A stretch of 64,000 nt of DNA from Shigella phage PSD9: the sequence record MZ561532, one strand, 5' to 3'. Below the pieces are notes generated by a model. It was not told where the DNA came from. It searched no databases and was given only the letters and a program-made list of their open reading frames with translations. A program made the translations under genes and the position numbers. How positions within the stretch are numbered: position 1 is the stretch's first letter; the number at the start of each line of letters is the position of its first letter. Positions 1,815-26,037 of this stretch are shown one piece after another.

Positions 1815-4800
1815 ATGGCCGATATTTTAAAACCTGCCTTCCGTGCTACATCCGGACTCGATGCTGCAGGCGAGAAAGTTATCAATGTTGCCAAAGCCGA
1901 TTACAATGTATTAGACGACGGCGTCAACGTTGAATTCTTTATAGATGAGAACACCATCCAGGCGTACGACGAGACGCGCGGATATAAGAAAGGGTTTGCC
2001 GTAATCCATGACCAACGTATCTGGGTTGCTCAACGTGATATCGATGCTCCAGCAGGAACCTTTGTACCGGGTTATTGGACTGCAACTCGTACTGACCCTA
2101 AATGGATTACCGTAGCATCTCCTACACGCCAGCTGGCTTCCGGTGAATATATTGCTGTGGATTCTGCTGCTAGCTTTACTACATTTACCCTGCCTCCGAA
2201 CCCTACTGATGGTGATACCATCGTAATCAAGGATATTGGTGGCCGTGTAGGTTATAATGAAATTAAGCTCCAGTCTAGTTCTGCTCCAGGTGGTGGTAAT
2301 CAGAAAATTGTCCGTTTCGGTAACCAGTTCACTGAGACCTTAATTACGAAGCCTTTTTCCTATAATATGATTATCTTTGCCAACCGTTTATGGCATTTCT
2401 GGGAAGCAGCTAATGAAGAACGTGGTATTCGTGTAGAACCGAACACTGCCCAGTTCCAATCACAAGCGGGTGATAACGTTTTACGTCGTTATACTTCAGG
2501 TGCAGTAATTAAGTTTACTCTTCCTAAGTATGCGAACCAAGGTGATATTATTAAAACCGTTGATATCGATGGTTTAGGAAGTAAATTCCACTTAATCGTT
2601 GAAACATTTGATGCGTCATCTTCATTAGGTAAGCCTGGCCAGCATAGCATGGAATTCCGTACTTCAGGTGATGGATTCTTTGTTTATAACTCTACCGAAA
2701 AATTATGGTATGTTTGGGACGGCGACCGACAAACTCGTTTACGTGTAATTCGTGACGATGTTGAACTCTTGGCTAACGAAAGTGTTATTGTTTTTGGTCC
2801 TAATAACACGACACCCCAGACAATTAATATCACATTACCTACCGGTGTGGCCCAGGGTGATGTCGTTAAGATTGCTCTGAACTATCTCCGTAAAGCTCAG
2901 ACGGTAAATATTAAGGCTGCCGTAGGAGATAAGATTGCTTCATCCGTCCAGTTGCTTCAATTCCCTAAACGTTCAGAATATCCACCAGAAACCGAATGGG
3001 TATTGAATGACGTACTGACCTTTAATGGCAATATAAGTTATACTCCGGTTATTGAACTGAGTTATATCGAAGACACCACTACAGGTGGCAAATATTGGGT
3101 TGTTGCTCAGAACGTTCCTACTATAGAACGTGTGGATTCTAAAGATGATTTAACTCGTGCTCGTCTCGGTGTTATTGCCCTTGCGTCGCAGACTCAGGCA
3201 AACGTTGACCATGAAAATAACCCTGAGAAAGAACTTGCAATTACTCCACAGACTTTAGCTAATCGTGTAGCGACTGAATCTCGTCGTGGTATTGCTCGTA
3301 TTGCTACTACTGCTCAGGTGAACCAGGACACAACCTTCGCATTCCAGGACGATTTGATTATTTCTCCTAAGAAATTAAACGAACGTACTGCAACCGAAAC
3401 TCGCCGTGGTGTTGCTGAAATTGCTACGCAAGTTGAAACTAACACGGGTACAGATGATACTACAATCATCACTCCTAAGAAGCTACAAGCGCGCCAGGGT
3501 TCGGAAAGTCTTTCAGGTATTGTAACATATACCTCTACTGTAGGAACCGCTCCTGCGACTGCTAGGGACACCGTAGGTACTAACGTTTATAATAAGAACG
3601 TAGGCAATTTGGTTATTTCTCCTAAAGCTCTTGACCAGTATAAAGCTACCCAAGTTCAACAGGGTACGGTATATCTTTCTAACCAATCTGAAGTTAACGC
3701 AGGCCAATCGGCAAGTGGATTTGCCAACAGTGCTGTTTCTCCGGAAACATTACATGCTCGTGTGGCTCTTGATACTCGTACAGGGTTAATTGAAATTGCT
3801 ACGCAACAGGAAACTGATACTGGAACAGATTATACTCGTGCGGTAACACCTAAGACGTTAAATGATAGGAAAGCTACGGAAGGATTGACTGGTATTGCTA
3901 GAATTGCAACACAGGTAGAATTTGATGCAGGTACGTTAGATAATGTTATTTCAACTCCGTTGAAAATTAAAACAAGATTTAATGATACTGCTAGAACTTC
4001 TGTCTCAGCAGCCAGTGGTTTGGTTGAATCAGGAACCTTATGGAACCATTATACACTAGATATTAGAGAAGCAAATGAGACACAACGTGGTACTGCTCGC
4101 CTGGCAACCCAGACCGAAGTCAACGTTGGTACTGATGACAAAACCATCATCACTCCTTTGAAATTACACTCTAAAAAATCTACTGAAAGTTCTGAAGGTA
4201 TTATTCGTGTTGCAACCAATACCGAAACAACCGCAGGAACTTCTAAAGTTTTGGCTGTAAGCCCTTCTGGTTTAAAATATGTAGTACAGACCGAAACTAC
4301 TTGGGAAGCTACTGCACTTCGTCGTGGATTTGTTAAACTAACCGAAGGTGCTTTAACCCATTCAGGAAATAAAGTTACTGGTTCTGGTGTTAAATTTAAC
4401 TCAGGTACAGGCCTTTACGAGAACGATGATACTGTTCTGAATGCAGCGAACTATCCTAAAACAGGTTATGCTGTTTCATCTTACGAGATGAATAAAACTT
4501 TACAGAACTTTTTACCTATAAATGCTACGGCTGTGAACTCCGAGAAATTGGATGGCCTAGATTCACTTCAGTTCATTCGTAGAGACGTTGACCAAACGGT
4601 TAATGGTTCTTTAACGTTGACAAAACAATTGAACCTGGCAGCTCCTCTAGTGTCTTCTAGTACTGCTAATATTACCGGCAATACTATTTTAGGTTCTCTG
4701 GAAGTAACCGGAAATTCTACTTTTAAAAATGATGTATCTGTTAGCTCAGGTAAATCTATTAAATTTGTAGGCCCTCAGTCAGGCGCTGGTACTTGGAACT

Positions 4801-5864
4801 CTCAAGGTGATACTTTAGCTCCGATTTTTGCCGAGATAAATTCGACCCCAGATGCCAAGTTCCATCCTATTGTTAAACAACGTTTAGGGCAAGGTACGTT
4901 CTCTTTAGGCACTGTAAATGATGGAACTCGTGATTTTAAAATACATTATCTTCCATCGCCGGGTTCTTTAGAATCTTTCTACTGGACCTTTAATACGACT
5001 GGTGACTTTGCTGTTAATAGTGGTTCCATTAGTATTTCTAAGAATGCTAATATCACAGGTATAACCACTTCTAACGGTGTTTCTACAACTACATTAAATG
5101 CTTCTGCTCTGTCTTCATTACAAAACGTAACTACTTCAGGTACTATCGTTTCCACCGGACAGGTATCGGCAAATAATGGTTTGGTTGCTCAAAAATACGT
5201 CCGCTCTGTTGGTGTTAAACCTACATTAGCATCGCAGGCCCCTACTGCAGAAACAGTTGGCTTCTGGTCTGTCGATATCAATGATTCGGCTACATTTAAC
5301 CTATTCCCAGGTTATTGGACGATGAAAACTAAACGTCAGGTTAATATTGATACGGTCCAAACTAAACCTGCCGGTGTTTCTGATGAGATATGGAATGCTT
5401 CTGGTTGGTTGACGGAAACGGGTGCATTTAGTTCTCCGGCTATTCGTTATCGTAACGAAGACGGTAGTTTTGGTGACGAAGTTCTCAGTACGACGGGTCA
5501 GAAATTACGTGGTACTTGGTTTGATTATTCTGTTCGTGATAAGGAAGTTAAATATCCTGGTACGTTAACTCAGTTTGGTAATACATTGGATTCATGTTAT
5601 CAGGATTGGGTGTGCTATCCTACAGGACTGAATGGTGGTACTATTCGTTATACACGTACCTGGCAGAAAAATAAAAACGCATGGACTACGTTCTCTATGG
5701 TCTATACGGCAGATAACCCTCCTTCTGCGGAAGAGGTTGGTGCATTGCCTGCTGATAACGCCACAATGGGTAACATTACAATCCTTGATTGGTTACGTAT
5801 TGGTAACGTTCGTATTATTCCTGACCCGGTCACTAAATCCGTTAAGTTTGAGTGGATTGAATAA
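1815..5864 (+). CDS. 34: Long tail fibre proximal subunit gp34
   Basis: 1349-aa ORF; extensive match to recalled T4 gp34 (N-terminus MADILKPAFRATSGLDAAGEKVINVA, repeated ...TETRRGIA(R/E)IAT... motifs, C-terminus GNVRIIPDPVTKSVKFEWIE). Confidence 0.95.
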   Translation: MADILKPAFRATSGLDAAGEKVINVAKADYNVLDDGVNVEFFIDENTIQAYDETRGYKKGFAVIHDQRIWVAQRDIDAPAGTFVPGYWTATRTDPKWITVASPTRQLASGEYIAVDSAASFTTFTLPPNPTDGDTIVIKDIGGRVGYNEIKLQSSSAPGGGNQKIVRFGNQFTETLITKPFSYNMIIFANRLWHFWEAANEERGIRVEPNTAQFQSQAGDNVLRRYTSGAVIKFTLPKYANQGDIIKTVDIDGLGSKFHLIVETFDASSSLGKPGQHSMEFRTSGDGFFVYNSTEKLWYVWDGDRQTRLRVIRDDVELLANESVIVFGPNNTTPQTINITLPTGVAQGDVVKIALNYLRKAQTVNIKAAVGDKIASSVQLLQFPKRSEYPPETEWVLNDVLTFNGNISYTPVIELSYIEDTTTGGKYWVVAQNVPTIERVDSKDDLTRARLGVIALASQTQANVDHENNPEKELAITPQTLANRVATESRRGIARIATTAQVNQDTTFAFQDDLIISPKKLNERTATETRRGVAEIATQVETNTGTDDTTIITPKKLQARQGSESLSGIVTYTSTVGTAPATARDTVGTNVYNKNVGNLVISPKALDQYKATQVQQGTVYLSNQSEVNAGQSASGFANSAVSPETLHARVALDTRTGLIEIATQQETDTGTDYTRAVTPKTLNDRKATEGLTGIARIATQVEFDAGTLDNVISTPLKIKTRFNDTARTSVSAASGLVESGTLWNHYTLDIREANETQRGTARLATQTEVNVGTDDKTIITPLKLHSKKSTESSEGIIRVATNTETTAGTSKVLAVSPSGLKYVVQTETTWEATALRRGFVKLTEGALTHSGNKVTGSGVKFNSGTGLYENDDTVLNAANYPKTGYAVSSYEMNKTLQNFLPINATAVNSEKLDGLDSLQFIRRDVDQTVNGSLTLTKQLNLAAPLVSSSTANITGNTILGSLEVTGNSTFKNDVSVSSGKSIKFVGPQSGAGTWNSQGDTLAPIFAEINSTPDAKFHPIVKQRLGQGTFSLGTVNDGTRDFKIHYLPSPGSLESFYWTFNTTGDFAVNSGSISISKNANITGITTSNGVSTTTLNASALSSLQNVTTSGTIVSTGQVSANNGLVAQKYVRSVGVKPTLASQAPTAETVGFWSVDINDSATFNLFPGYWTMKTKRQVNIDTVQTKPAGVSDEIWNASGWLTETGAFSSPAIRYRNEDGSFGDEVLSTTGQKLRGTWFDYSVRDKEVKYPGTLTQFGNTLDSCYQDWVCYPTGLNGGTIRYTRTWQKNKNAWTTFSMVYTADNPPSAEEVGALPADNATMGNITILDWLRIGNVRIIPDPVTKSVKFEWIE

Positions 5865-5872
5865 GAGGTATT

Positions 5873-6994
5873 ATGGAAAGATTTATGGCAGAATTTGGAC
5901 AAGGATATGTCCAGGTTCCTACATTATCTGAAAACAATGCTGTAAGGTATAAACTTAGTATAGCGGGTAGTTGTACTAAGTCTACCACAAAAGCATATGT
6001 TAAATTTCAAGATGGGAACTTCGGTTCCCAGAATTTTCAAAATGGATTAAACCTTATAGAAATTGATGTTAGTGCTGAACCTAAAATAGTGGCTAACAAA
6101 ACTTATAGTTTTACAAAAGATTTTGATGTTATTTCTGAAGCTTTTATAACGTATATAAATTCTATACCGGCCAATAGAATAGTTTGTTTAGTATCTTCTG
6201 GTAGATTAAATGCTTCACAAAAACTTATTGATTGGTTCCGTGCAGCAGGAAGTACCGCATTCCCGACTAAATGGTTAATAGACCGGTTTGAGCCATCTTA
6301 TTCTGCATTTTATGTTTCAGGAAGGAATGCCATAGTAATGGAACATGTGCTTTATAATGATGGGGTATTGGTCGAAGATGTTTCTACCCCATTAGAAGTG
6401 GTATTTGATGATATCAGCGACGTTGGTGGTACAGGATATCCTGTCAGAATTGTTGAAGACGAAAGCACTTATCTAAGCAATGATGGAGATGAAATTAAGC
6501 GATTTCCTACCGAATCTCCTACCACCCCATTAACAGATTATAATATGAAACCAGGTGAATTCTTTTACCTTAAGTTTCAATTAATGCGCGACCAAGCTTT
6601 AAAAGACGTAGGGACTTCTCAGATGTCTGTTAGATTTTTTAATGCCTCAGGTGCTTTAACTGGGACAGTTAATATGGACGTTCCTTCCAACGTTCCTGCT
6701 GGCGCATGGATGACATTTGAACGGGTAGTAATGGTTCCTGAAGGTACTACAGACTTTACTCTTTATGCCAGAAAAACAGCTTCGGCTGGCCAAGGCGGAG
6801 TTCGAAATGTTATGTTCGGTGAGATATCTGAATCAGAACCTCAGCCAAAACCTGCTGAATTTGGTGTTAACGGTATTCGTATGAACTTTGGTACGGAAAC
6901 TAAAAATATGGGTACTACCATAGCCCAGCTATATGATAAAACAGGCACTAAACCTGGTCAGGTTTGGGTCGCTGAATTTAGAGAAAAATATTAA
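5873..6994 (+). CDS. 35: Long tail fibre hinge connector gp35
   Basis: 373-aa ORF directly after gene 34 (T4 gp35 about 372 aa); synteny. Confidence 0.8.
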   Translation: MERFMAEFGQGYVQVPTLSENNAVRYKLSIAGSCTKSTTKAYVKFQDGNFGSQNFQNGLNLIEIDVSAEPKIVANKTYSFTKDFDVISEAFITYINSIPANRIVCLVSSGRLNASQKLIDWFRAAGSTAFPTKWLIDRFEPSYSAFYVSGRNAIVMEHVLYNDGVLVEDVSTPLEVVFDDISDVGGTGYPVRIVEDESTYLSNDGDEIKRFPTESPTTPLTDYNMKPGEFFYLKFQLMRDQALKDVGTSQMSVRFFNASGALTGTVNMDVPSNVPAGAWMTFERVVMVPEGTTDFTLYARKTASAGQGGVRNVMFGEISESEPQPKPAEFGVNGIRMNFGTETKNMGTTIAQLYDKTGTKPGQVWVAEFREKY

Positions 6995-7069: not shown

Positions 7070-7717
7070 ATGGCAGATTTAAAATTAGGTTCTACAGCAG
7101 GAGGTTCAGTATTATGGCACCAAGGTAATTTTCCCTTAACGCCTGTATCAAATGACCTTCTTTACAAAACATATAAAGTTTATACCGAATATAATAAACC
7201 GCAAGCCACTGATAACGACTTTGTTTCAAAAGCAAATGGTGGTAATTATAAGAATAACGTGTATTTTGAAAAAGGGCTGACCTTTAATGATACTAATGGA
7301 TACGGTATTAAATTAGGAACAAGAACTGGTGGAGCACCGTTCACGGCTTCTTTCCGTATTAAAGGCGCTTTTGGATATGAAACGGAAGATGGTACTCCGT
7401 TCATGATATTCAACCCAAGTACAGTAGTAGGTGCTAAACGCCTCACAGTAATGGGTGATTCATTATTCAGACAAGTATATGACGAATCAGGTCGTGTATT
7501 CAGTCCAGGCAACACCCCTACTAAAGCTCAAGTAGGATTATCGTTAGTAGATAACGCAAAACAGGTCCAAATAAATAATACTAACATGCAAACAATGACC
7601 GGAGTACTTGCTGCTCCTAACTTTATTTCGCTGAATCCGGCCTCTGACGCAGGACACGTTCCTCGTTTTGACCAGATTGTTATTAAAGATTCTATTCAAG
7701 ATTTTGGTTATTATTAA
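7070..7717 (+). CDS. 36: Long tail fibre hinge protein gp36
   Basis: 215-aa ORF between gp35 and gp37 (T4 gp36 about 221 aa); synteny. Confidence 0.8.
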   Translation: MADLKLGSTAGGSVLWHQGNFPLTPVSNDLLYKTYKVYTEYNKPQATDNDFVSKANGGNYKNNVYFEKGLTFNDTNGYGIKLGTRTGGAPFTASFRIKGAFGYETEDGTPFMIFNPSTVVGAKRLTVMGDSLFRQVYDESGRVFSPGNTPTKAQVGLSLVDNAKQVQINNTNMQTMTGVLAAPNFISLNPASDAGHVPRFDQIVIKDSIQDFGYY

Positions 7718-7725
7718 GAGGCATT

Positions 7726-10700
7726 ATGGCTACTTTAAAGCAAATCCAATTTAAAAGAAGTAAAGTAGCCGGTGTACGTCCGACACCGGCCCAGTTGGCT
7801 GAAGGTGAACTGGCTATTAACTTAAAGGACCGATTACTTTTTACTAAAGACGATACTGGAGCGATTATCGACCTTGGCTTTGCTAAAGGTGGTAATATTG
7901 ACGGTAATGTTATTCATAACGGTAACTACAACCAGACTGGCGATTACACCCTAAATGGTACCTTTACCCAAACAGGTGATTTTAATTTAACCGGTATTGC
8001 TCGTGTAACTCGTGACATTATTGCCGCTGGCCAGATAATGACCGAAGGTGGCGAGCTTATTTCTAAGAGTGCATCGACGTCCCATTTGAGATTTTTTGAC
8101 GGCGCATCCCGCGAACGTGGCATTATCTTTTCGCCAAATAATGCTGGAGCGACCACTCAGGTAGTTAATATTCGCGTACAAGATTATGCGACAAGTGGCG
8201 AAAGCACTTATGCATTTTCAGGCAATGGACAATTTACTTCACCTGAAGTATCAGCATTGAAATCTATTTCGTCTCCACAAATTCTGACCGATAAAGTTAT
8301 TACAAACGGGAAGAAGACAGGCGATTATGATATCTATTCATTGGCAAATAATAATTCTAACACAGATAAAAATAATTTACGCGTTGTGCGTACTGATCCA
8401 GCGGCCGCAATGCTCCATGAAATTTGTGAAAATAACGGTATCAGTTGGTATTCCGGTTCAACCCCTACTGATTATATGATATCTTTTGCTTATTCCGGTG
8501 GTTTTCAAGCTGGACATTCGATTGCAGTAGGTATGGAATCAGGGCCTATGACCTATTCAACCTTAGGTAAAGGTTCTATTGTTTTAGGTGATAATGACAC
8601 TGGGCTAAAATGGCATCAGGATGGATATTATTTCAGCGTTAATAACGGCACAAGAACTTTCCTGTACGGCCCTGCAGAAACCACCAGTCTTAGAAAAATG
8701 GTTATGGGTTATTCTGTAAACGGTACCGATTTAACTACTCCTCCAACTGAAAACTATGCTTTGGCTACTGTTGTTACTTACCATGATAATAACGCATTTG
8801 GTGATGGTCAAACTCTTTTAGGTTATTACCAAGGTGGCAATTATCACCACTATTTCCGCGGTAAAGGTACTACAAACGTTAACACCGCTGGTGGTTTGTT
8901 AGTTACTCCTGGTAATATTGATGTTGTTGGTGGTTCTGTTAATATCGATGGTCGTAATAATGCTTCTACGCTGATGTTTAGAGGTAACACGACCGGAAGT
9001 AGTTCAGTTGATAATATGACTATCGCCGTTTGGGGTAATACCTTTACTAATGTTGATGGCGACCGTAAAAACGTAATGGAAATATCTGATGCCACTAGCT
9101 GGATTCAATATTATCAACGACTGTCTTCAGGTGCTATTCAAAGCCATTTAAATGGAACTTTGGGTGTAAACGAAAGTATAAATGTCGGCCAGGAAGTTAA
9201 CGTCTCCGGCACTATTGCTGGTAATGCGGTCAATGCTCTTAGAATTTGGAACGACGATTACGCCGCTATTTTCCGCCGTTCAGAAAACAGTCTTCATATT
9301 ATTCCTACCGCCTTTGGCGAAGGTAAAACTGGTGATATTGGTCCACTTCGCCCGTTTCGTATGGACCTTGATACAGGTAAAGTAAGTATTCCTAATATGG
9401 ATACTACTAATTTGACTATGAACCCAAATGGCTATATTAAATTTGCTGGTCATGGCTCAGGCGCTGGTGGTTATGATATTCAGTATGCACAAGCAGCTCC
9501 TGTTTTCCAGGAAATCGATGATGATGCTGTAAGTAAATATTATCCTATTGTTAAACAGAAGTTTTTAAACAGTAAAGCTGTTTGGTCTTTAGGTACTGAA
9601 ATTAATTCCGGGGATTTTGTTTTACACCATATGAAAGAAGATGGAACACAATCTCATCTCTCAAGATTTAATGCTGACGGTACAGTTAACTTCCCGGATA
9701 GCGTTAAAGTCGGTGGCGATAAAGCTACTATCGGCAAAGATGGTAACATCTGGTCTGATATCTGGAAAACGTTTACTTCTGCCGGTGACGTAACCAATCT
9801 TCTTGGTGCTGTCTATAGCCGGGTTTCTAAAGAAGGCGATACGTTGACAGGCCGCTTAACTCTTAAAACCAACTCAGACGCCGTTGTTATTGATTATCCA
9901 GCAGATGAAGCAGGTTATGTTAAGGGTAAAAAAGGTGGTGTTAATAACTGGTATGTTGGTAATGGCGGTGCTGATAATAACTTATCGTTTTATAGTTTCC
10001 AAACTAATTCAGGCGTTAATATTCATAATAGTGGAGAAATTGGTTTAGCTCCTCAAGGGTCGGATACTTTTTATTTTAATAGGGACCGACTTTATATAAA
10101 GGGTGCACAATGGACAGCTCATCAATCTGGTGCATGGGGTGACCAATGGGGTTTAGAAGCGCCTGTATTTGTGGATTTTGGCAATGTCAGTAATGACTGT
10201 TATTATCCAATTATCAAAGGAAGATCTGGTATTACTAACGAAGGATACATATCGGGTGTAGATTTTGGTATGCGACGCATTACTAATACCTGGGCACAAG
10301 GTATTATTCGTGTAGGTAACCAGGAAAATGGTCAAGACCCACAAGCTATATATGAATTCCACCATAATGGGGTTTTTTATGCTCCAAGCTTACTTAAGAG
10401 CGGCAGAGTATCGGCCGGTGGTGGTGACCCGGCATGGACTGGGCCATGTATTGTTATTGGTGATAATGATACTGGTTTAGTCCATGGCGGTGATGGTCGT
10501 ATTAACATGGTTGCCAATGGTGTGCATATTGCATCTTGGTCTGACTCTTACCATATCCATGAAGGTCTTTGGGATACCAATGGTGCTTTGTGGACTGAAC
10601 ACGGAAGAGCTATTATTTCTTTTGGCCATTTAGTCCAACAAAACGATAGCTATTCAACATTTGTTCGTGACGTTTATGTTCGTTCTGATATTCGTGTTAA

Positions 10701-11019
10701 AAAAGACCTTGTTAAATTTGAAAATGCTTCACAGACACTTTCAAAAATTAACGGTTACACTTATATGCAGAAACGTGGCCTGGATGAAGAAGGTAATCAG
10801 AAATGGGAACCTAATGCCGGTTTAATTGCTCAAGAAGTTCAAGCTATTTTACCGGAATTAGTTGAAGGTGACCCTGATGGTGAAGCTTTACTTCGTTTGA
10901 ACTATAACGGTGTAATTGGTTTAAATACGGCTGCAATCAATGAGCACACTGCAGAAATAGCAGAATTGAAATCAGAGATTGAAGAACTTAAAGCACTAAT
11001 TAAATCATTGTTAAAATAA
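7726..11019 (+). CDS. 37: Long tail fibre distal subunit gp37 with C-terminal intramolecular chaperone domain
   Basis: N-terminus [36 protein letters not shown] matches T4 gp37; C-terminal about 110 aa carries the S74-type auto-cleaving chaperone signature (SDIRVKK...[15 protein letters not shown]... then a coiled coil). Confidence 0.9.
10684..11016 (+). other. Intramolecular chaperone / auto-proteolytic domain (peptidase S74-like) at the gp37 C-terminus
   Basis: SDIRVKKDL...[17 protein letters not shown]...[18 protein letters not shown]; motif family of endosialidase and T5 pb1 C-terminal chaperones; consistent with reported proteolytic processing of T2 gp37. Confidence 0.6.
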
Positions 11020-11024
11020 TAAGA

Positions 11025-11038
11025 GGGGCTTCGGCCCC
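11025..11038 (+). other. GGGGC-UUCG-GCCCC stem-loop between genes 37 and 38 (no U-tract)
   Basis: Perfect 5-bp stem with UUCG tetraloop 5 nt after the gp37 stop and 12 nt before the gp38 ATG; followed by the SD ggagg rather than a U run. Confidence 0.45.
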
Positions 11039-11050
11039 TTGGAGGTTTAT

Positions 11051-11845
11051 ATGGCAGTAGTAGGACCATGGGTTGGAGGGTCTGCAGTAGCTAATACAGG
11101 ACAAAACTGGATGGGTGGCGCTGCCCAGCGATTGAGAATGGGTATTCCGTTTTGGATGAGTAATATGAACGGTCGGTCTGTTGAAGTAATTCATACTTTA
11201 GGTGGGGACCATAACTTTAATGGGCAATGGTTCCGCGACCGTTGCTTTGAAGCCGGTAGTGCGCCTATTGTGTTTAATCTTACAGGTACATTAGTATCTT
11301 ATACCCGTGATGTTCCATTGTTCTTTATGTATGGGGATACTCCAAACGAATATGTTCAATTGAATATTGGTGGTGGGGTTCATATATGGGGCCGAGGTGG
11401 TCAAGGTGGATGGACCCACTCGGGTGGCGATGGCAACGGCCAATGGGGTGGAACTTGTATTGTAAATGATATTGGCGGTCGTTTAAGAATTAATAATGGT
11501 GGGGTTATCTGTGGCGGTGGCGGTGGCGGTGGCGGCATTGCGTGGCGTCCTTACTCAGGTGCTAACTGGCAAGATATCGGTGGTGGTGGTGGACGTCCAT
11601 TTGGTCCTGATGGCGGTGGTAGATTCTCCGGTGGTGGTGCTTCTTATGAAAGCCCTGGCGGTGGATACGATTTGGATAGAGCCCACTCAGGACATGGCGG
11701 TGATGCTGGTGCCTCAGGCCAGAACGCATGGTCTTATGGTGGTAAAGTTCTTAAAGTTGGGGCTGGGGGCGGCGCAGGAGCTGCTGTTGCTGGAAGTTCT
11801 CCTACTTGGCATAATACAGGTGTTATCTACGGTTCCTGGCTATAG
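11051..11845 (+). CDS. 38: Tail fibre tip adhesin gp38 (T2-type, glycine-rich motifs)
   Basis: Track ORF starts at TTG 11039; ATG 11051 with SD ggagg gives [21 protein letters not shown]...[23 protein letters not shown]...[18 protein letters not shown]... then poly-Gly segments, matching the recalled T2-type gp38 adhesin architecture. Confidence 0.85.
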
Positions 11846-11856
11846 TGCATAAGCTC

Positions 11857-11864
11857 TATAAATA
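11857..11864 (+). promoter_or_regulatory. Late promoter TATAAATA for holin gene t
   Basis: Exact TATAAATA 19 nt upstream of ATG 11883, followed by SD aaaggag. Confidence 0.6.
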
Positions 11865-11882
11865 TCTTTAAAGGAGAAAAGT

Positions 11883-12536
11883 ATGGAACCAAAAGTAGGA
11901 TTTTCATTATCAGACCTACTTTTTGGACTTCTTGATAGAATTTTTAAAGATACTTCTTCCGGGAAAGTAGTTTTTTCCCGGGTCCTAGTCGTGATATTAT
12001 TGTTCTTTATGGCATTGGTTTGGTATAAAGGCGAGTATATTCTAAACTTTTATAAAGAGACTACTTATGCCTCTTATACTGAAATGATTAGACAAGACCA
12101 GGACAATAGATTTAAAATTGCGGCTATCGAGCAGCTCCGAATAGTGCATTCTTCTTCAGGCGCAGACTTCACAGCAATATATTCTTTTAGACCAACCAAC
12201 ATGAATTATTTTGTGGATATGGTGGCTTACGAGGGTAAATTACCGGAAACGGTAGACGCAAAAAACACGGGAGGGTTTCCAATTGACAAAACGTCAGTAG
12301 AATATATGGCGGGAGTTAACGGGAACTATTTTGAATCAAGTACCGAAACTGTATTCCTTCCTACAAAGAAGAAAACACAATTCACGTATATGTTTTCATG
12401 CCCGTTTTTTAATTTGGATAACGTCTACGCCGGCTCGATATCGTTGTACTGGTATGATATCAAACCGGATTTAGGATTTCCTAGACTTTCGTCTATGTGC
12501 GGTCAGGCTGGGAGGACATTAGGTCGAACACGTTAG
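11883..12536 (+). CDS. t: Holin T
   Basis: 217-aa ORF; strong match to recalled T4 holin T (SLSDLLFGLLDRIFKD, single N-terminal TMD, VDMVAYEGKLPETV, C-terminus CGQAGRTLGR). Confidence 0.9.
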   Translation: MEPKVGFSLSDLLFGLLDRIFKDTSSGKVVFSRVLVVILLFFMALVWYKGEYILNFYKETTYASYTEMIRQDQDNRFKIAAIEQLRIVHSSSGADFTAIYSFRPTNMNYFVDMVAYEGKLPETVDAKNTGGFPIDKTSVEYMAGVNGNYFESSTETVFLPTKKKTQFTYMFSCPFFNLDNVYAGSISLYWYDIKPDLGFPRLSSMCGQAGRTLGRTR

Positions 12537-12808
12537 AAATTGGAGGTATACATCATTAAGTAACGGTGTATATCTTCATACCCTTCATTAAATTGCTCAA
12601 TAAGAGTGTCACGTTCATCTTCAGTTAATGACTTAAATAATTTGTTATAAGACAAACCGTTAAGTTCCTTTCCGTGTTCATTACGAATACCTAACTCATT
12701 CAAAAAGGCAATAAACTCATCACGACGTTGCATGATGTCTTCACAATCCGTTTTAATCAAAATGGAAACAATAGTAGCAATTTCGGAAACAATTTCAATT
12801 TTAGTCAT
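12533..12808 (-). CDS. asiA: Anti-sigma70 factor AsiA
   Basis: 91-aa ORF; IATIVSILIK...FIAFLNELGI...LIEQFNEGYEDIHRYLMMYT matches recalled T4 AsiA. Confidence 0.85.
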   Translation of the reverse strand: MTKIEIVSEIATIVSILIKTDCEDIMQRRDEFIAFLNELGIRNEHGKELNGLSYNKLFKSLTEDERDTLIEQFNEGYEDIHRYLMMYTSNF

Positions 12809-19857: not shown

Positions 19858-19869
19858 AATTCCTCATTA

Positions 19870-19885
19870 GGAGGCCGAAGCCTCC
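19870..19885 (-). other. GGAGGC-UUCG-GCCUCC stem-loop between rIIB and the downstream gene (no U-tract)
   Basis: Perfect 6-bp stem with UUCG loop; followed on the minus strand by an SD and start codon rather than a U run. Confidence 0.45.
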
Positions 19886-19894
19886 ATTATTGAT

Positions 19895-20863
19895 TTAGTA
19901 TTTGTATTCGTTTGCGAACTGTTCGGTGACGTCTTCTAGAACTTCATAATAACATACACGCATTTTAGCATCACCGTAATCGACCGGAATACTAACAACA
20001 TCACGTGGGTTAACTTTACATGAAACCACTTTACAGCTTGAGTTACCAAAATGACCGATATAACTACGAGAGCAAACGTGCAGACCACTTGAACAGGTTA
20101 CTTCATCATCGTCATTTACACGAGAACGAGGCATTTTAACCGGTTTGCCTGGTGAGTTATCAAACGTACCGGTACGGCAGTCGGTGTAATCGGAGTTAAC
20201 CACCTTCCACGTAATAAAGTGACCATCTTCAGTAATTTTGATGTCGTTTGCCACCAAGAAGTCGAACAAACGTTGTACAGCTTTTTCGCTTGGGTTTTCT
20301 AACAGGTTCTCAAGGAACGGCAGGTAGAATTCAAAGTCTTCACCATTTTCCATTGAAGTAATAATACGGTCAATCAATCCTGAACGCAATTCAATGCCTT
20401 GGTAAACCAGACGTCCACCTTCAATACGAACGTTACCTTTGACGAAGGCCTTAACGGCTTCTTTAATGGAAATCAGTTTAATCGCGTCATCGAAACGAGA
20501 TTCTTTAAGAGCCTGTACGATGGCATCAAAATGTTTGTTCTTATTAGTGGTGTTCCATACTGTACGACCTTCAGTGATGGATACGAATTTAGAACTCGCG
20601 TTCCAGATAATTTCAGGGCGAGAGCCGCCAATAGTAACTTCAACGGGAACTTCACGAGGCTCGTTAGGAACTGTTACTTTGATATTTCCGGTAATAACTA
20701 CCTGGGCCCGTCCAGCTCCTTTAGCATTTTTCAGGACTTTACGGATTGTATCAACTGATACACTGTACCAGTCAGCCAACTCATTCTGAGTATAATTACC
20801 AGAAATATATAACTTAACGATTTCAACTTGCTCAGCGGAGGTCAAACACTTAATATTGTACAT
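19895..20863 (-). CDS. rIIB: rIIB protein
   Basis: 322-aa ORF; N-terminus MYNIKCLTSAEQVEIVKLYISGNYTQNELADW and C-terminal region (KMPRSRVNDDDEVTCSSGLHVCSRSYIGHFG...YEVLEDVTEQF) match recalled T4 rIIB. Confidence 0.9.
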   Translation of the reverse strand: MYNIKCLTSAEQVEIVKLYISGNYTQNELADWYSVSVDTIRKVLKNAKGAGRAQVVITGNIKVTVPNEPREVPVEVTIGGSRPEIIWNASSKFVSITEGRTVWNTTNKNKHFDAIVQALKESRFDDAIKLISIKEAVKAFVKGNVRIEGGRLVYQGIELRSGLIDRIITSMENGEDFEFYLPFLENLLENPSEKAVQRLFDFLVANDIKITEDGHFITWKVVNSDYTDCRTGTFDNSPGKPVKMPRSRVNDDDEVTCSSGLHVCSRSYIGHFGNSSCKVVSCKVNPRDVVSIPVDYGDAKMRVCYYEVLEDVTEQFANEYKY

Positions 20864-23660: not shown

Positions 23661-23678
23661 AAAAGGGCCCGAAGGCCC
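23661..23678 (-). terminator. Intrinsic terminator GGGCC-UUCG-GGCCC plus U4
   Basis: gggcccgaaggccc preceded by aaaa on the plus strand; on the minus transcript it follows the small ORF stop. Confidence 0.55.
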
Positions 23679-23686
23679 TTATTAGT

Positions 23687-25759: not shown

Positions 25760-25777
25760 TAAAAGGGCCGAAGCCCT
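25760..25777 (-). terminator. Intrinsic terminator GGGC-UUCG-GCCC plus U4
   Basis: gggccgaagccc immediately 3' of the lipoprotein stop on the minus strand, followed by UUUU. Confidence 0.5.
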
Positions 25778-26037
25778 TAATCAAATCGAATGGTCGACTT
25801 TTTAAAGAATAACCCAGAACAAACGGTTCCTTCAACCCTTTTACCCGTCGGACCGACAGCAATAAAGCCTGTACGTTGGAAATCATCTTCAGAGCAGCCA
25901 AATAGGTTGTATCCTGTGATTTGAATTTGTTCGTAGCCATTTGCATCCAATACACGGGTAGCATTATCGGCATCAGTACAACCAACCAACGAAACGGCTA
26001 GTACAAGAGCTGCAATAGAACGATTAATATATTTCAT
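25777..26037 (-). CDS. Predicted lipoprotein (86 aa)
   Basis: Signal peptide with lipobox MKYINRSIAALVLAVSLVGC; ends at the terminator hairpin. Confidence 0.6.
   Translation of the reverse strand: MKYINRSIAALVLAVSLVGCTDADNATRVLDANGYEQIQITGYNLFGCSEDDFQRTGFIAVGPTGKRVEGTVCSGLFFKKSTIRFD

Follow-up and report, generated by a model that had tools for sequence, protein, structure and literature searches.

What the long tail fiber of Shigella phage PSD9 carries at its tip, which outer-membrane protein it is likely to bind, and what purpose is served by the RNA hairpin between the last two genes of the tail-fiber cluster are the questions raised by a locus in the 64,000-nucleotide (nt) stretch of PSD9 DNA that was analyzed here (sequence record MZ561532; the whole stretch is called the window). 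The isolation host of PSD9 (MZ561532.1) is multidrug-resistant Shigella dysenteriae KUST9 and its source was chicken intestine; the sole paper on this phage is a study of its lysozyme that never mentions tail fibers (PMC8882861). The locus consists of genes 37 and 38 (g37 and g38, encoding gp37 and gp38) and the hairpin that separates them, and is assigned, with a probability of roughly 0.9, to the long-tail-fiber receptor-recognition modules of the T2/T6/S16 type, in a Dhakavirus-like T-even phage. Nothing contradicts this assignment, the elements of which had been proposed in an earlier note made from the DNA sequence alone.

Gp37 and its C-terminal chaperone

The larger of the two genes encodes a fiber subunit followed by a chaperone domain:

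7726-11019, + strand: g37, encoding 1097 amino acids
7726-10683, + strand: mature gp37, the distal long-tail-fiber subunit, residues 1-986, with its end at Arg986 predicted to result from autocleavage
10684-11019, + strand: intramolecular chaperone of gp37 (Peptidase_S74), residues 987-1097 (111 amino acids), and stop codon

The earlier note held that gp37 ends in an S74-type chaperone that begins at position 10684, and a protein family, a conserved motif and a solved structure agree with it. Residues 987-1046 match the Pfam family Peptidase_S74 (PF13884) with an E value of 9.4e-12 and 45.5 bits (cut-off 22 bits), and the domain makes up the last 111 of the 1097 residues, i.e. the extreme C-terminus. 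It starts with Ser987 (codon at nt 10684-10686) of the sequence SDIRVKK. When the last 140 residues of gp37 of PSD9, T2, T6, S16, PSD2002, E33, WFK, FL08 and AV119 were aligned, the S, D, R and K of the motif SDxRxK proved to be invariant in all nine. The SDIRVK of PSD9 thus has a serine (Ser987) at the site of cleavage and a lysine (Lys992) five residues downstream, the predicted catalytic dyad in view of work on the K1F endosialidase. The gp37 C-terminus matches 6F45_A, a construct of the gp37 tip and chaperone of phage S16, with an E value of 3.8e-43, and the residues that precede the S74 domain correspond to the trimeric tip in this structure. A profile of the gp37 C-terminus matches 6F45_A at 1.4e-60, the intramolecular chaperone of MYRF (7DC3) at 2.4e-10, the tail fiber 8JOV at 7e-7 and, at 1e-3, the chaperone that is released from the neck appendage of GA-1 (3GUD). 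The first residue of the 3GUD chain is the Ser that aligns with Ser987, and in the profile comparison the helical tail of gp37 aligns with the MYRF chaperone domain at its C-terminal helix.

The gp37 of S16 cleaves itself at DLNVS^SDRRIKK, and the release of 113 amino acids exposes the surface on which gp38 docks (PMC7917993). By alignment with this site, cleavage of PSD9 gp37 should occur at DVYVR^S987DIRVKK and free 111 residues. Gp37 would be made with the S74 chaperone at its C-terminus, where it would drive trimerization of the distal beta-helix; the chaperone would then cut itself off between Arg986 and Ser987 through the Ser987/Lys992 dyad, leaving the tip of the trimer exposed. The gp37 of T4 aligns with residues 1-635 only of PSD9 gp37 (34% identity), and T4 gp38 is without similarity to PSD9 gp38 (E 3.2); these comparisons uphold the classification of the module in the earlier note as T2-type and not T4-type.

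The gp38 adhesin

The gene directly downstream of the chaperone-bearing g37 and upstream of the holin gene t encodes an adhesin, the domains of which were taken from alignment and have approximate boundaries:

11041-11045, + strand: Shine-Dalgarno (SD) sequence GGAGG of g38, 5 nt upstream of the ATG, read from the sequence
11051-11845, + strand: g38, encoding 264 amino acids
11051-11170, + strand: N-terminal attachment domain, residues 1-40, predicted to dock on the gp37 trimer at its tip (Pfam Gp38_N)
11171-11404, + strand: linker and beta-helix, about residues 41-118 (Pfam GP38; alignment to 9V85 and 6F45_D)
11405-11767, + strand: polyglycine sandwich, about residues 119-239, bearing glycine-rich motifs and hypervariable loops for receptor binding (alignments)
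11768-11845, + strand: conserved C-terminal strand, residues 240-264, and stop codon TAG (11843-11845)

A mechanically produced list of open reading frames (ORFs) starts g38 at TTG 11039, but ATG 11051 is almost certainly the true start, given that GGAGG is found 5 nt upstream of it and the match to Gp38_N begins at residue 1. Residues 1-39 match Gp38_N (PF21721) with an E value of 1.6e-20 and 73.3 bits, and gp38 matches GP38 (PF05268) with an E value of 2.4e-63 and 214.3 bits; the cut-off of each family is 25 bits. Compared with solved adhesins, gp38 matches that of phage PP01 (9V85) at 4.1e-69 and that of S16 (6F45_D) at 1.5e-49, and its full-length alignment to both implies a predicted three-domain fold with a polyglycine-II sandwich. 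Residues W7, W20 and W35 are invariant in an alignment of 12 adhesins that includes those of T2, T6 and S16, as are the glycine runs G156-G162 and G177-G181 (the latter followed by RP), which flank variable segments. Gp38 accordingly has the conserved N-terminal attachment domain and the polyglycine motifs that the earlier note described, and the glycine-rich string quoted there is found verbatim. Within the family of adhesins to which gp38 belongs, the loop region is 79-90% identical versus 79-100% for the beta-helix; with E33, PSD2002, LHE83 and LQ5, identity is 95-100% in the beta-helix and 100% in residues 240-264.

In S16, the three tryptophans equivalent to W7, W20 and W35 insert into pockets of gp37 (PMC6851490). 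By analogy, one copy of PSD9 gp38 would use W7, W20 and W35 to cap the gp37 tip through its N-terminal three-helix domain, so that gp37 and gp38 would assemble 3:1. Gp38 is known to be present in the virion at the fiber tip and to bind the receptor in S16, PP01 and LHE83 (antiserum block), all of them relatives. The statement of the earlier note that this architecture determines host range in T2/T6/S16-like phages has the backing of the literature, in which that role is established (PMC12032242, PMC12892980, PMC6851490). The module decides to which bacteria the phage can attach, and therefore matters for the choice and engineering of therapeutic phages.

Predicted receptor of gp38

The phylogeny of gp38 without its N-terminus predicts the receptor (Lutz et al. 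2025, PMC12032242). In the polyglycine/loop region (about residues 119-239), PSD9 gp38 is 86% identical to that of LHE83 and 83% identical to those of AV119 and FL08, versus 40-45% for T2, T6, S16 and PP01. In a tblastn search with the C-terminal 150 amino acids, AV119 (82.3%) was level with many Tequatrovirus records at 82-83% among the matches listed. T2 uses FadL/OmpF as receptors and S16 uses OmpC. The receptor of PP01 is also OmpC (PMC12892980), and T6-like adhesins have Tsx as receptor (PMC12032242). AV119 and FL08, which carry type 1 adhesins, are OmpA-dependent on deletion mutants of MG1655 (PMC12032242), and OmpA was identified as the receptor of LHE83 by a frameshift resistance mutant and by adsorption assays with knockout, complementation and overexpression (PMC10987938). 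The comparison of gp38 variable segments with characterized adhesins, which the earlier note had suggested as a check, thus separates an OmpA family at 83-86% from binders of FadL/OmpF, Tsx and OmpC at 40-45%, and by these loop-region identities, the N-terminus being excluded, PSD9 gp38 groups with adhesins that are experimentally OmpA-dependent. On this basis OmpA is the best prediction of the receptor and a reasonably probable one: the hypervariable loops on the polyglycine-II sandwich would bind an outer-membrane protein, most likely OmpA.

Several points weigh against OmpA. Adsorption of LHE83 to BL21 without OmpA is still approximately 50%, which indicates a second receptor for LHE83 (PMC10987938); PSD9 was isolated on Shigella dysenteriae and not on E. 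coli (PMC8882861); the receptor comparison leaves out the classical OmpA phages K3, Ox2 and M1; and ten substitutions private to PSD9 fall in or beside loops that contact the receptor. It is the residual adsorption of LHE83, together with these ten residues at 165-229 and their positions in loops B, D and E, that keeps the prediction of OmpA from being made with greater confidence.

Private loop residues and mosaic structure of g38

Eleven residues of PSD9 gp38 are absent from eight other adhesins of the same family, and all except one lie within residues 165-229 (W165, Y168, D187, R191, F192, L208, D209, R210, S222 and Y229), a clustering with a chance of about 7e-6 by our own binomial estimate. 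The private positions align with or beside loop B (Q161), the cross-link site of loop D (G208/Y209) and loop E (Y230) of the PP01 adhesin, and in PP01 these three loops contact OmpC (loop positions as in PMC12892980). With S. dysenteriae KUST9 as the isolation host (PMC8882861), such changes might have shifted the adhesin away from OmpA of the E. coli K-12 type to another OmpA allele, e.g. that of S. dysenteriae, or to another receptor. The singularity of the protein is in keeping with such a shift: gp38, like gp37, is a singleton when approximately 15 billion proteins are clustered at 90%. Single loop changes in host-range mutants of Ox2 from the Henning laboratory are also said to be able to switch the receptor of gp38. 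However, the loop scaffold and most of the loop residues are those of OmpA binders, the clade of gp38 generally predicts the receptor (PMC12032242), and the ratio of nonsynonymous to synonymous differences (pN/pS) of the loop region is below 1. A retargeted adhesin is therefore possible but somewhat unlikely, and binding of OmpA remains the preferred prediction.

The pN/pS ratio in comparison with E33 rises from 0.26 in residues 1-118 to 0.54 in residues 165-239, and positive selection on the loops was rejected as an explanation because the latter value stays under 1. In comparison with PSD2002, synonymous divergence is 0.08 in residues 1-118, 0.55 in residues 165-239 and 0 in residues 240-264, a jump that indicates recombination breakpoints inside g38 rather than selection. 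Nucleotide identity to phages of three genera, calculated in 100-nt windows, is 85-99% at 10700-11100, which comprises the chaperone, the hairpin and the gp38 N-terminus; it is 57-86% in the gp37 tip just upstream (10300-10600) and 67-96% in the gp38 loops (11500-11700), with a drop to 67-86% at 11600-11699. This mosaic layout is the known pattern of conserved linkers around exchangeable segments that confer specificity.

The hairpin between g37 and g38

The sequence between the two genes contains one structured element:

11023-11040, + strand: intercistronic C(UUCG)G hairpin GAGGGGC-UUCG-GCCCCUU with a stem of 7 base pairs and its loop at 11030-11033 (folding, covariation)

This is the UUCG stem-loop without a U-tract that the earlier note had placed between the genes. 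It is located directly 3' of the double stop TAATAA (11017-11022) and adjoins the SD sequence of g38. Its folding energy is -12.5 kcal/mol and the pairing probability of its arms is approximately 0.99; in the folding ensemble, the SD sequence has a mean unpaired probability of 0.79. The folding z-score in a 71-nt context is -1.16, which is not significant; it is conservation and covariation, and not energy, that make the hairpin significant. A G+C-rich hairpin occupies the equivalent place in the loci of T2, T6, S16, Mosigvirus, Tequatrovirus and Dhakavirus and in IMG/VR contigs, in at least ten different stem/loop versions, and only the most distant loci are without it. A MAFFT alignment of the whole intergenic region was set aside, the triloop variants (T6 and loci L025 and L026) having been mis-registered in it. 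Covariation was assessed instead in a loop-anchored alignment of 11 tetraloop versions, which is built around the hairpin and so leans towards structure: 93.5% of its cells are paired, compensatory changes occur in five of the seven base pairs, and none of 500 shuffles scores as high. Sliding of the register as a control gave at most 66% paired cells and a covariation score of at most 0.14, versus 93.5% and 0.416 observed. By these comparisons of sequences, the hairpin is judged to be real and under selection. The motif SSCTTCGGSS has five occurrences in the window versus 0.66 expected, and none of 100 shuffles reaches five.

On the + strand the hairpin is followed only by UU, and a scan for terminators on that strand does not call it; an intrinsic terminator on the + strand was rejected on these two grounds. 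The record of phage WFK labels the equivalent element a 'putative transcriptional terminator'. A search of Rfam from 10500 to 12600 found no family over the hairpin, and its only match, to c-di-GMP-I with 20.4 bits versus a gathering score of 35, was dismissed as chance.

Other hairpins and extended structures were observed. Read along the minus strand (11021-11040), the palindrome precedes the T-rich sequence CTTATTATTT and is classed as terminator-like by the scan. A possible role there is to halt read-through in the antisense direction from leftward early genes; alternatively, the A/T-rich stop region may give rise to it as a side effect. Another hairpin, GGAGGC-UUCG-GCCUCC (19868-19887, - strand), comes directly after the stop codon of a rIIB-like ORF (19895-20863) and is followed by an SD sequence and ATG, which is the layout of stop, hairpin, SD and AUG that is seen at the g37/g38 junction. 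Two more C(UUCG)G hairpins (23662-23681 and 25762-25779, - strand) come after stop codons, are followed by U-tracts and resemble terminators. PSD9 therefore uses this type of hairpin both with and without a U-tract. In T6-like loci (L001, which is T6 itself, L025 and L035), an outer helix is predicted to extend the hairpin in the 45 nt upstream of g38. Pairing of the g37 stop region with the g38 SD sequence in this modeled helix is suggestive of termination-dependent translational coupling in the lineage of T6; the outer helix is missing in PSD9.

Function of the hairpin

Exact T4-type late promoter boxes are found on the + strand of the tail-fiber area only at 1775, before g34, and at 11857, beyond g38, so that no exact box between these positions serves g38 separately. 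It follows that g38 is transcribed through the hairpin and that the hairpin is no strong terminator. Translation of g38 would proceed from the late mRNA of g37, read through the stable C(UUCG)G hairpin, with the SD sequence of g38 left single-stranded. The hairpin would most likely act as a fixed fold at the junction that insulates the ribosome-binding site of g38, and it may in addition hold back 3' exonucleases. Such a generic role is favored, as conjecture, over one specific to adhesins; it has against it that no experiment on the hairpin in a T2-type phage was found in the literature.

The UUCG tetraloop was first described in T4 mRNA (PMC4371310), and at gene 38 of T4 a hairpin between the SD sequence and AUG cuts their spacing from 22 to 5 nt, forming a 'split' ribosome-binding site (PMC3014915). 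T4 has TAAGGAGAGGGGCTTCGGCCCTTCTAAATATG at the junction equivalent to that of PSD9, in this published arrangement, and the SD-like sequence UAAGAGG, which is used at g34/g35 and g36/g37, also occurs after the g37 stop of PSD9 (11017-11026), as it might if the structure served to bring an upstream SD sequence near AUG here as well. A split site in PSD9 is nevertheless very improbable and was rejected as an explanation: its defining feature is a hairpin between SD and AUG, whereas the canonical GGAGG of PSD9 is 3' of the hairpin at ideal spacing, every adhesin-type locus examined has a conserved SD sequence downstream of the hairpin, and the 5' arm of the stem takes up four of the six AAGAGG bases.

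The earlier note proposed that the hairpin may tune the stoichiometry of gp38 to gp37, which is not supported as written because the nearly identical hairpin of T4 is an element of translation initiation (PMC3014915). In such a scheme, either partial late termination after g37 or protection of the g37 mRNA from 3' exonucleases would set gp37 and gp38 near 3:1. The hairpin does stand between the gene for a three-copy product and the gene for a single-copy product in one transcription unit in which g38 lacks an exact late promoter, it is very stable with conserved compensatory changes, its equivalent was named a putative terminator by the annotators of WFK, and two other CUUCGG hairpins of the window, those after stop codons and with U-tracts, resemble real terminators. 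The hairpin at the junction, however, has no U-tract and no terminator call on the + strand; the rIIB-like gene has an identical stop-hairpin-SD-AUG layout, so the motif is generic in PSD9; and the SD sequence of g38, being strong (GGAGG with 5-nt spacing) and exposed, is unlike a device for down-tuning. In addition, the gp38 of T4 is a non-structural chaperone with no requirement for 3:1, so that the hairpin can be explained without a function dedicated to adhesin stoichiometry, and the T4 hairpin is documented to raise translation of gene 38 (PMC3014915). Control of the 3:1 ratio by the hairpin is thus unlikely, and insulation of the ribosome-binding site remains favored.

A broader conjecture, which is speculative and rather doubtful, is that the stop-hairpin-SD junction is a post-transcriptional set-point for the adhesin in T2-type phages, and/or that the changes in loops B, D and E retarget an OmpA-family adhesin to the allele of S. 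dysenteriae. The set-point would be distinct from the split ribosome-binding site of T4, from which the junction appears to derive. Either reading, if true, would refine known biology modestly and would not amount to a new kind of system.

Gene order and neighboring features

The locus belongs to a T-even long-tail-fiber cluster on the + strand with the order g34-g35-g36-g37-g38-t, of which the members not given above are:

1815-5864, + strand: g34
5873-6994, + strand: g35
7070-7717, + strand: g36
11857-11864, + strand: T4-type late promoter box TATAAATA, located upstream of gene t and marking the 3' limit of the tail-fiber transcription unit
11883-12536, + strand: holin gene t (Pfam Phage_holin_T, E 3.6e-66)

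Dhakavirus phages such as WG01, PSD2002, E33 and LHE83 have approximately 96% identity to the core genes of the window. By exact-sequence look-up, gp37 is deposited as QXV72340.1 ('long tail fiber protein') and gp38 as QXV72341.1 ('receptor-recognizing protein'); in a phage BLAST collection, of which PSD9 is not an entry, the best full-length match is 91%. Residues 57-130 of the hinge connector gp35 match the Pfam family ILEI (PF15711, 'Interleukin-like EMT inducer') with an E value of 2.6e-6 and 28.3 bits, barely over the cut-off of 27, which is unexpected for a hinge protein of the tail fiber. At the g34/g35 (5860-5872) and g36/g37 (7716-7725) junctions, the sequence TAAGAGGnATT-ATG has a stop codon that overlaps the SD sequence; the TAAGAGG behind the g37 stop, in contrast, is broken up by the hairpin, after which a second SD sequence comes. 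ORFs in alternative frames within g38 (11496-11852 on the + strand, rich in VAVAVA; 11401-11538 and 11562-11729 on the - strand, the former poly-Pro and the latter His-rich) are by-products of GGY-rich glycine codons and not genes.

Comparison with known systems

The architecture of the module, the autocleaving chaperone, the fold of the polyglycine adhesin and the rule that the clade of gp38 predicts the receptor are already published, and the gene is already annotated. The present analysis adds the prediction of OmpA as receptor, the ten loop residues as candidates for Shigella-specific recognition, and the finding that the hairpin of T4 gene 38 is retained in T2-type phages with the SD sequence on its other side.

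A close parallel with a solved tip is S16 (6F45; Dunne et al. 2018, as summarized in PMC6851490 and PMC7917993), in which gp37 likewise ends in a chaperone that cleaves itself at an SDxRxKK site, gp38 has an attachment domain with three tryptophans, a beta-helix and a polyglycine sandwich (6F45_D), and the order of genes is that of PSD9 with a hairpin between them. S16 differs in its genus (Gelderlandvirus), in the sequence of its gp38 (50% identity overall and 43% in the loop region) and in its hairpin, AGAGCC-UACG-GGCUCU. The gp38 of PP01 is the best structural match (9V85, 4.1e-69), with a beta-helix that is 87% identical and glycine-rich motifs in common; its loop region, in contrast, is 45% identical, and loops B, D and E, the OmpC contacts of PP01, differ in PSD9.

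LHE83 shares with PSD9 the genus-level backbone of Dhakavirus, and its gp38 (GP213) is 95% identical in the beta-helix, 86% in the loops and 100% at the C-terminus, with segments of the loop family in common that include NAWSDGGKVLKV. It differs in its T6-type N-terminal attachment domain, which is 60% identical to that of PSD9, and in being without the ten private loop substitutions. The Tequatrovirus phages AV119 and FL08 are members of this loop family as well (their polyglycine/loop regions are 83% identical to that of PSD9), and from the chaperone through the hairpin to the gp38 N-terminus they have 85-94% nucleotide identity to PSD9 despite their different genus; the C-terminal 25 residues (64% identical), the beta-helix (87-88% identical) and the backbone of the phage set them apart.

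The S74 domains of the K1F endosialidase, the GA-1 neck appendage (3GUD), the L-shaped fiber of T5 and MYRF (7DC3) are members of the same Pfam family as that of PSD9, with a Ser at the cleavage site, a Lys five residues later and an aligned helical C-terminal bundle. They are distant (profile E values of 2e-10 to 1e-3), and the passenger of the PSD9 chaperone is the beta-helix of a T-even gp37 and not a sialidase or a T5 fiber.

In T4, finally, the stop codon of g37 is followed directly by a C(UUCG)G hairpin with a 16-nt core, AGAGGGGCTTCGGCCC, in common with PSD9, and this hairpin pairs in register with those of the adhesin-type loci. The gp37 tip and gp38 of T4 are not homologous to those of PSD9, and the SD sequence is upstream of the hairpin in T4 but downstream of it in PSD9 and its adhesin-type relatives.

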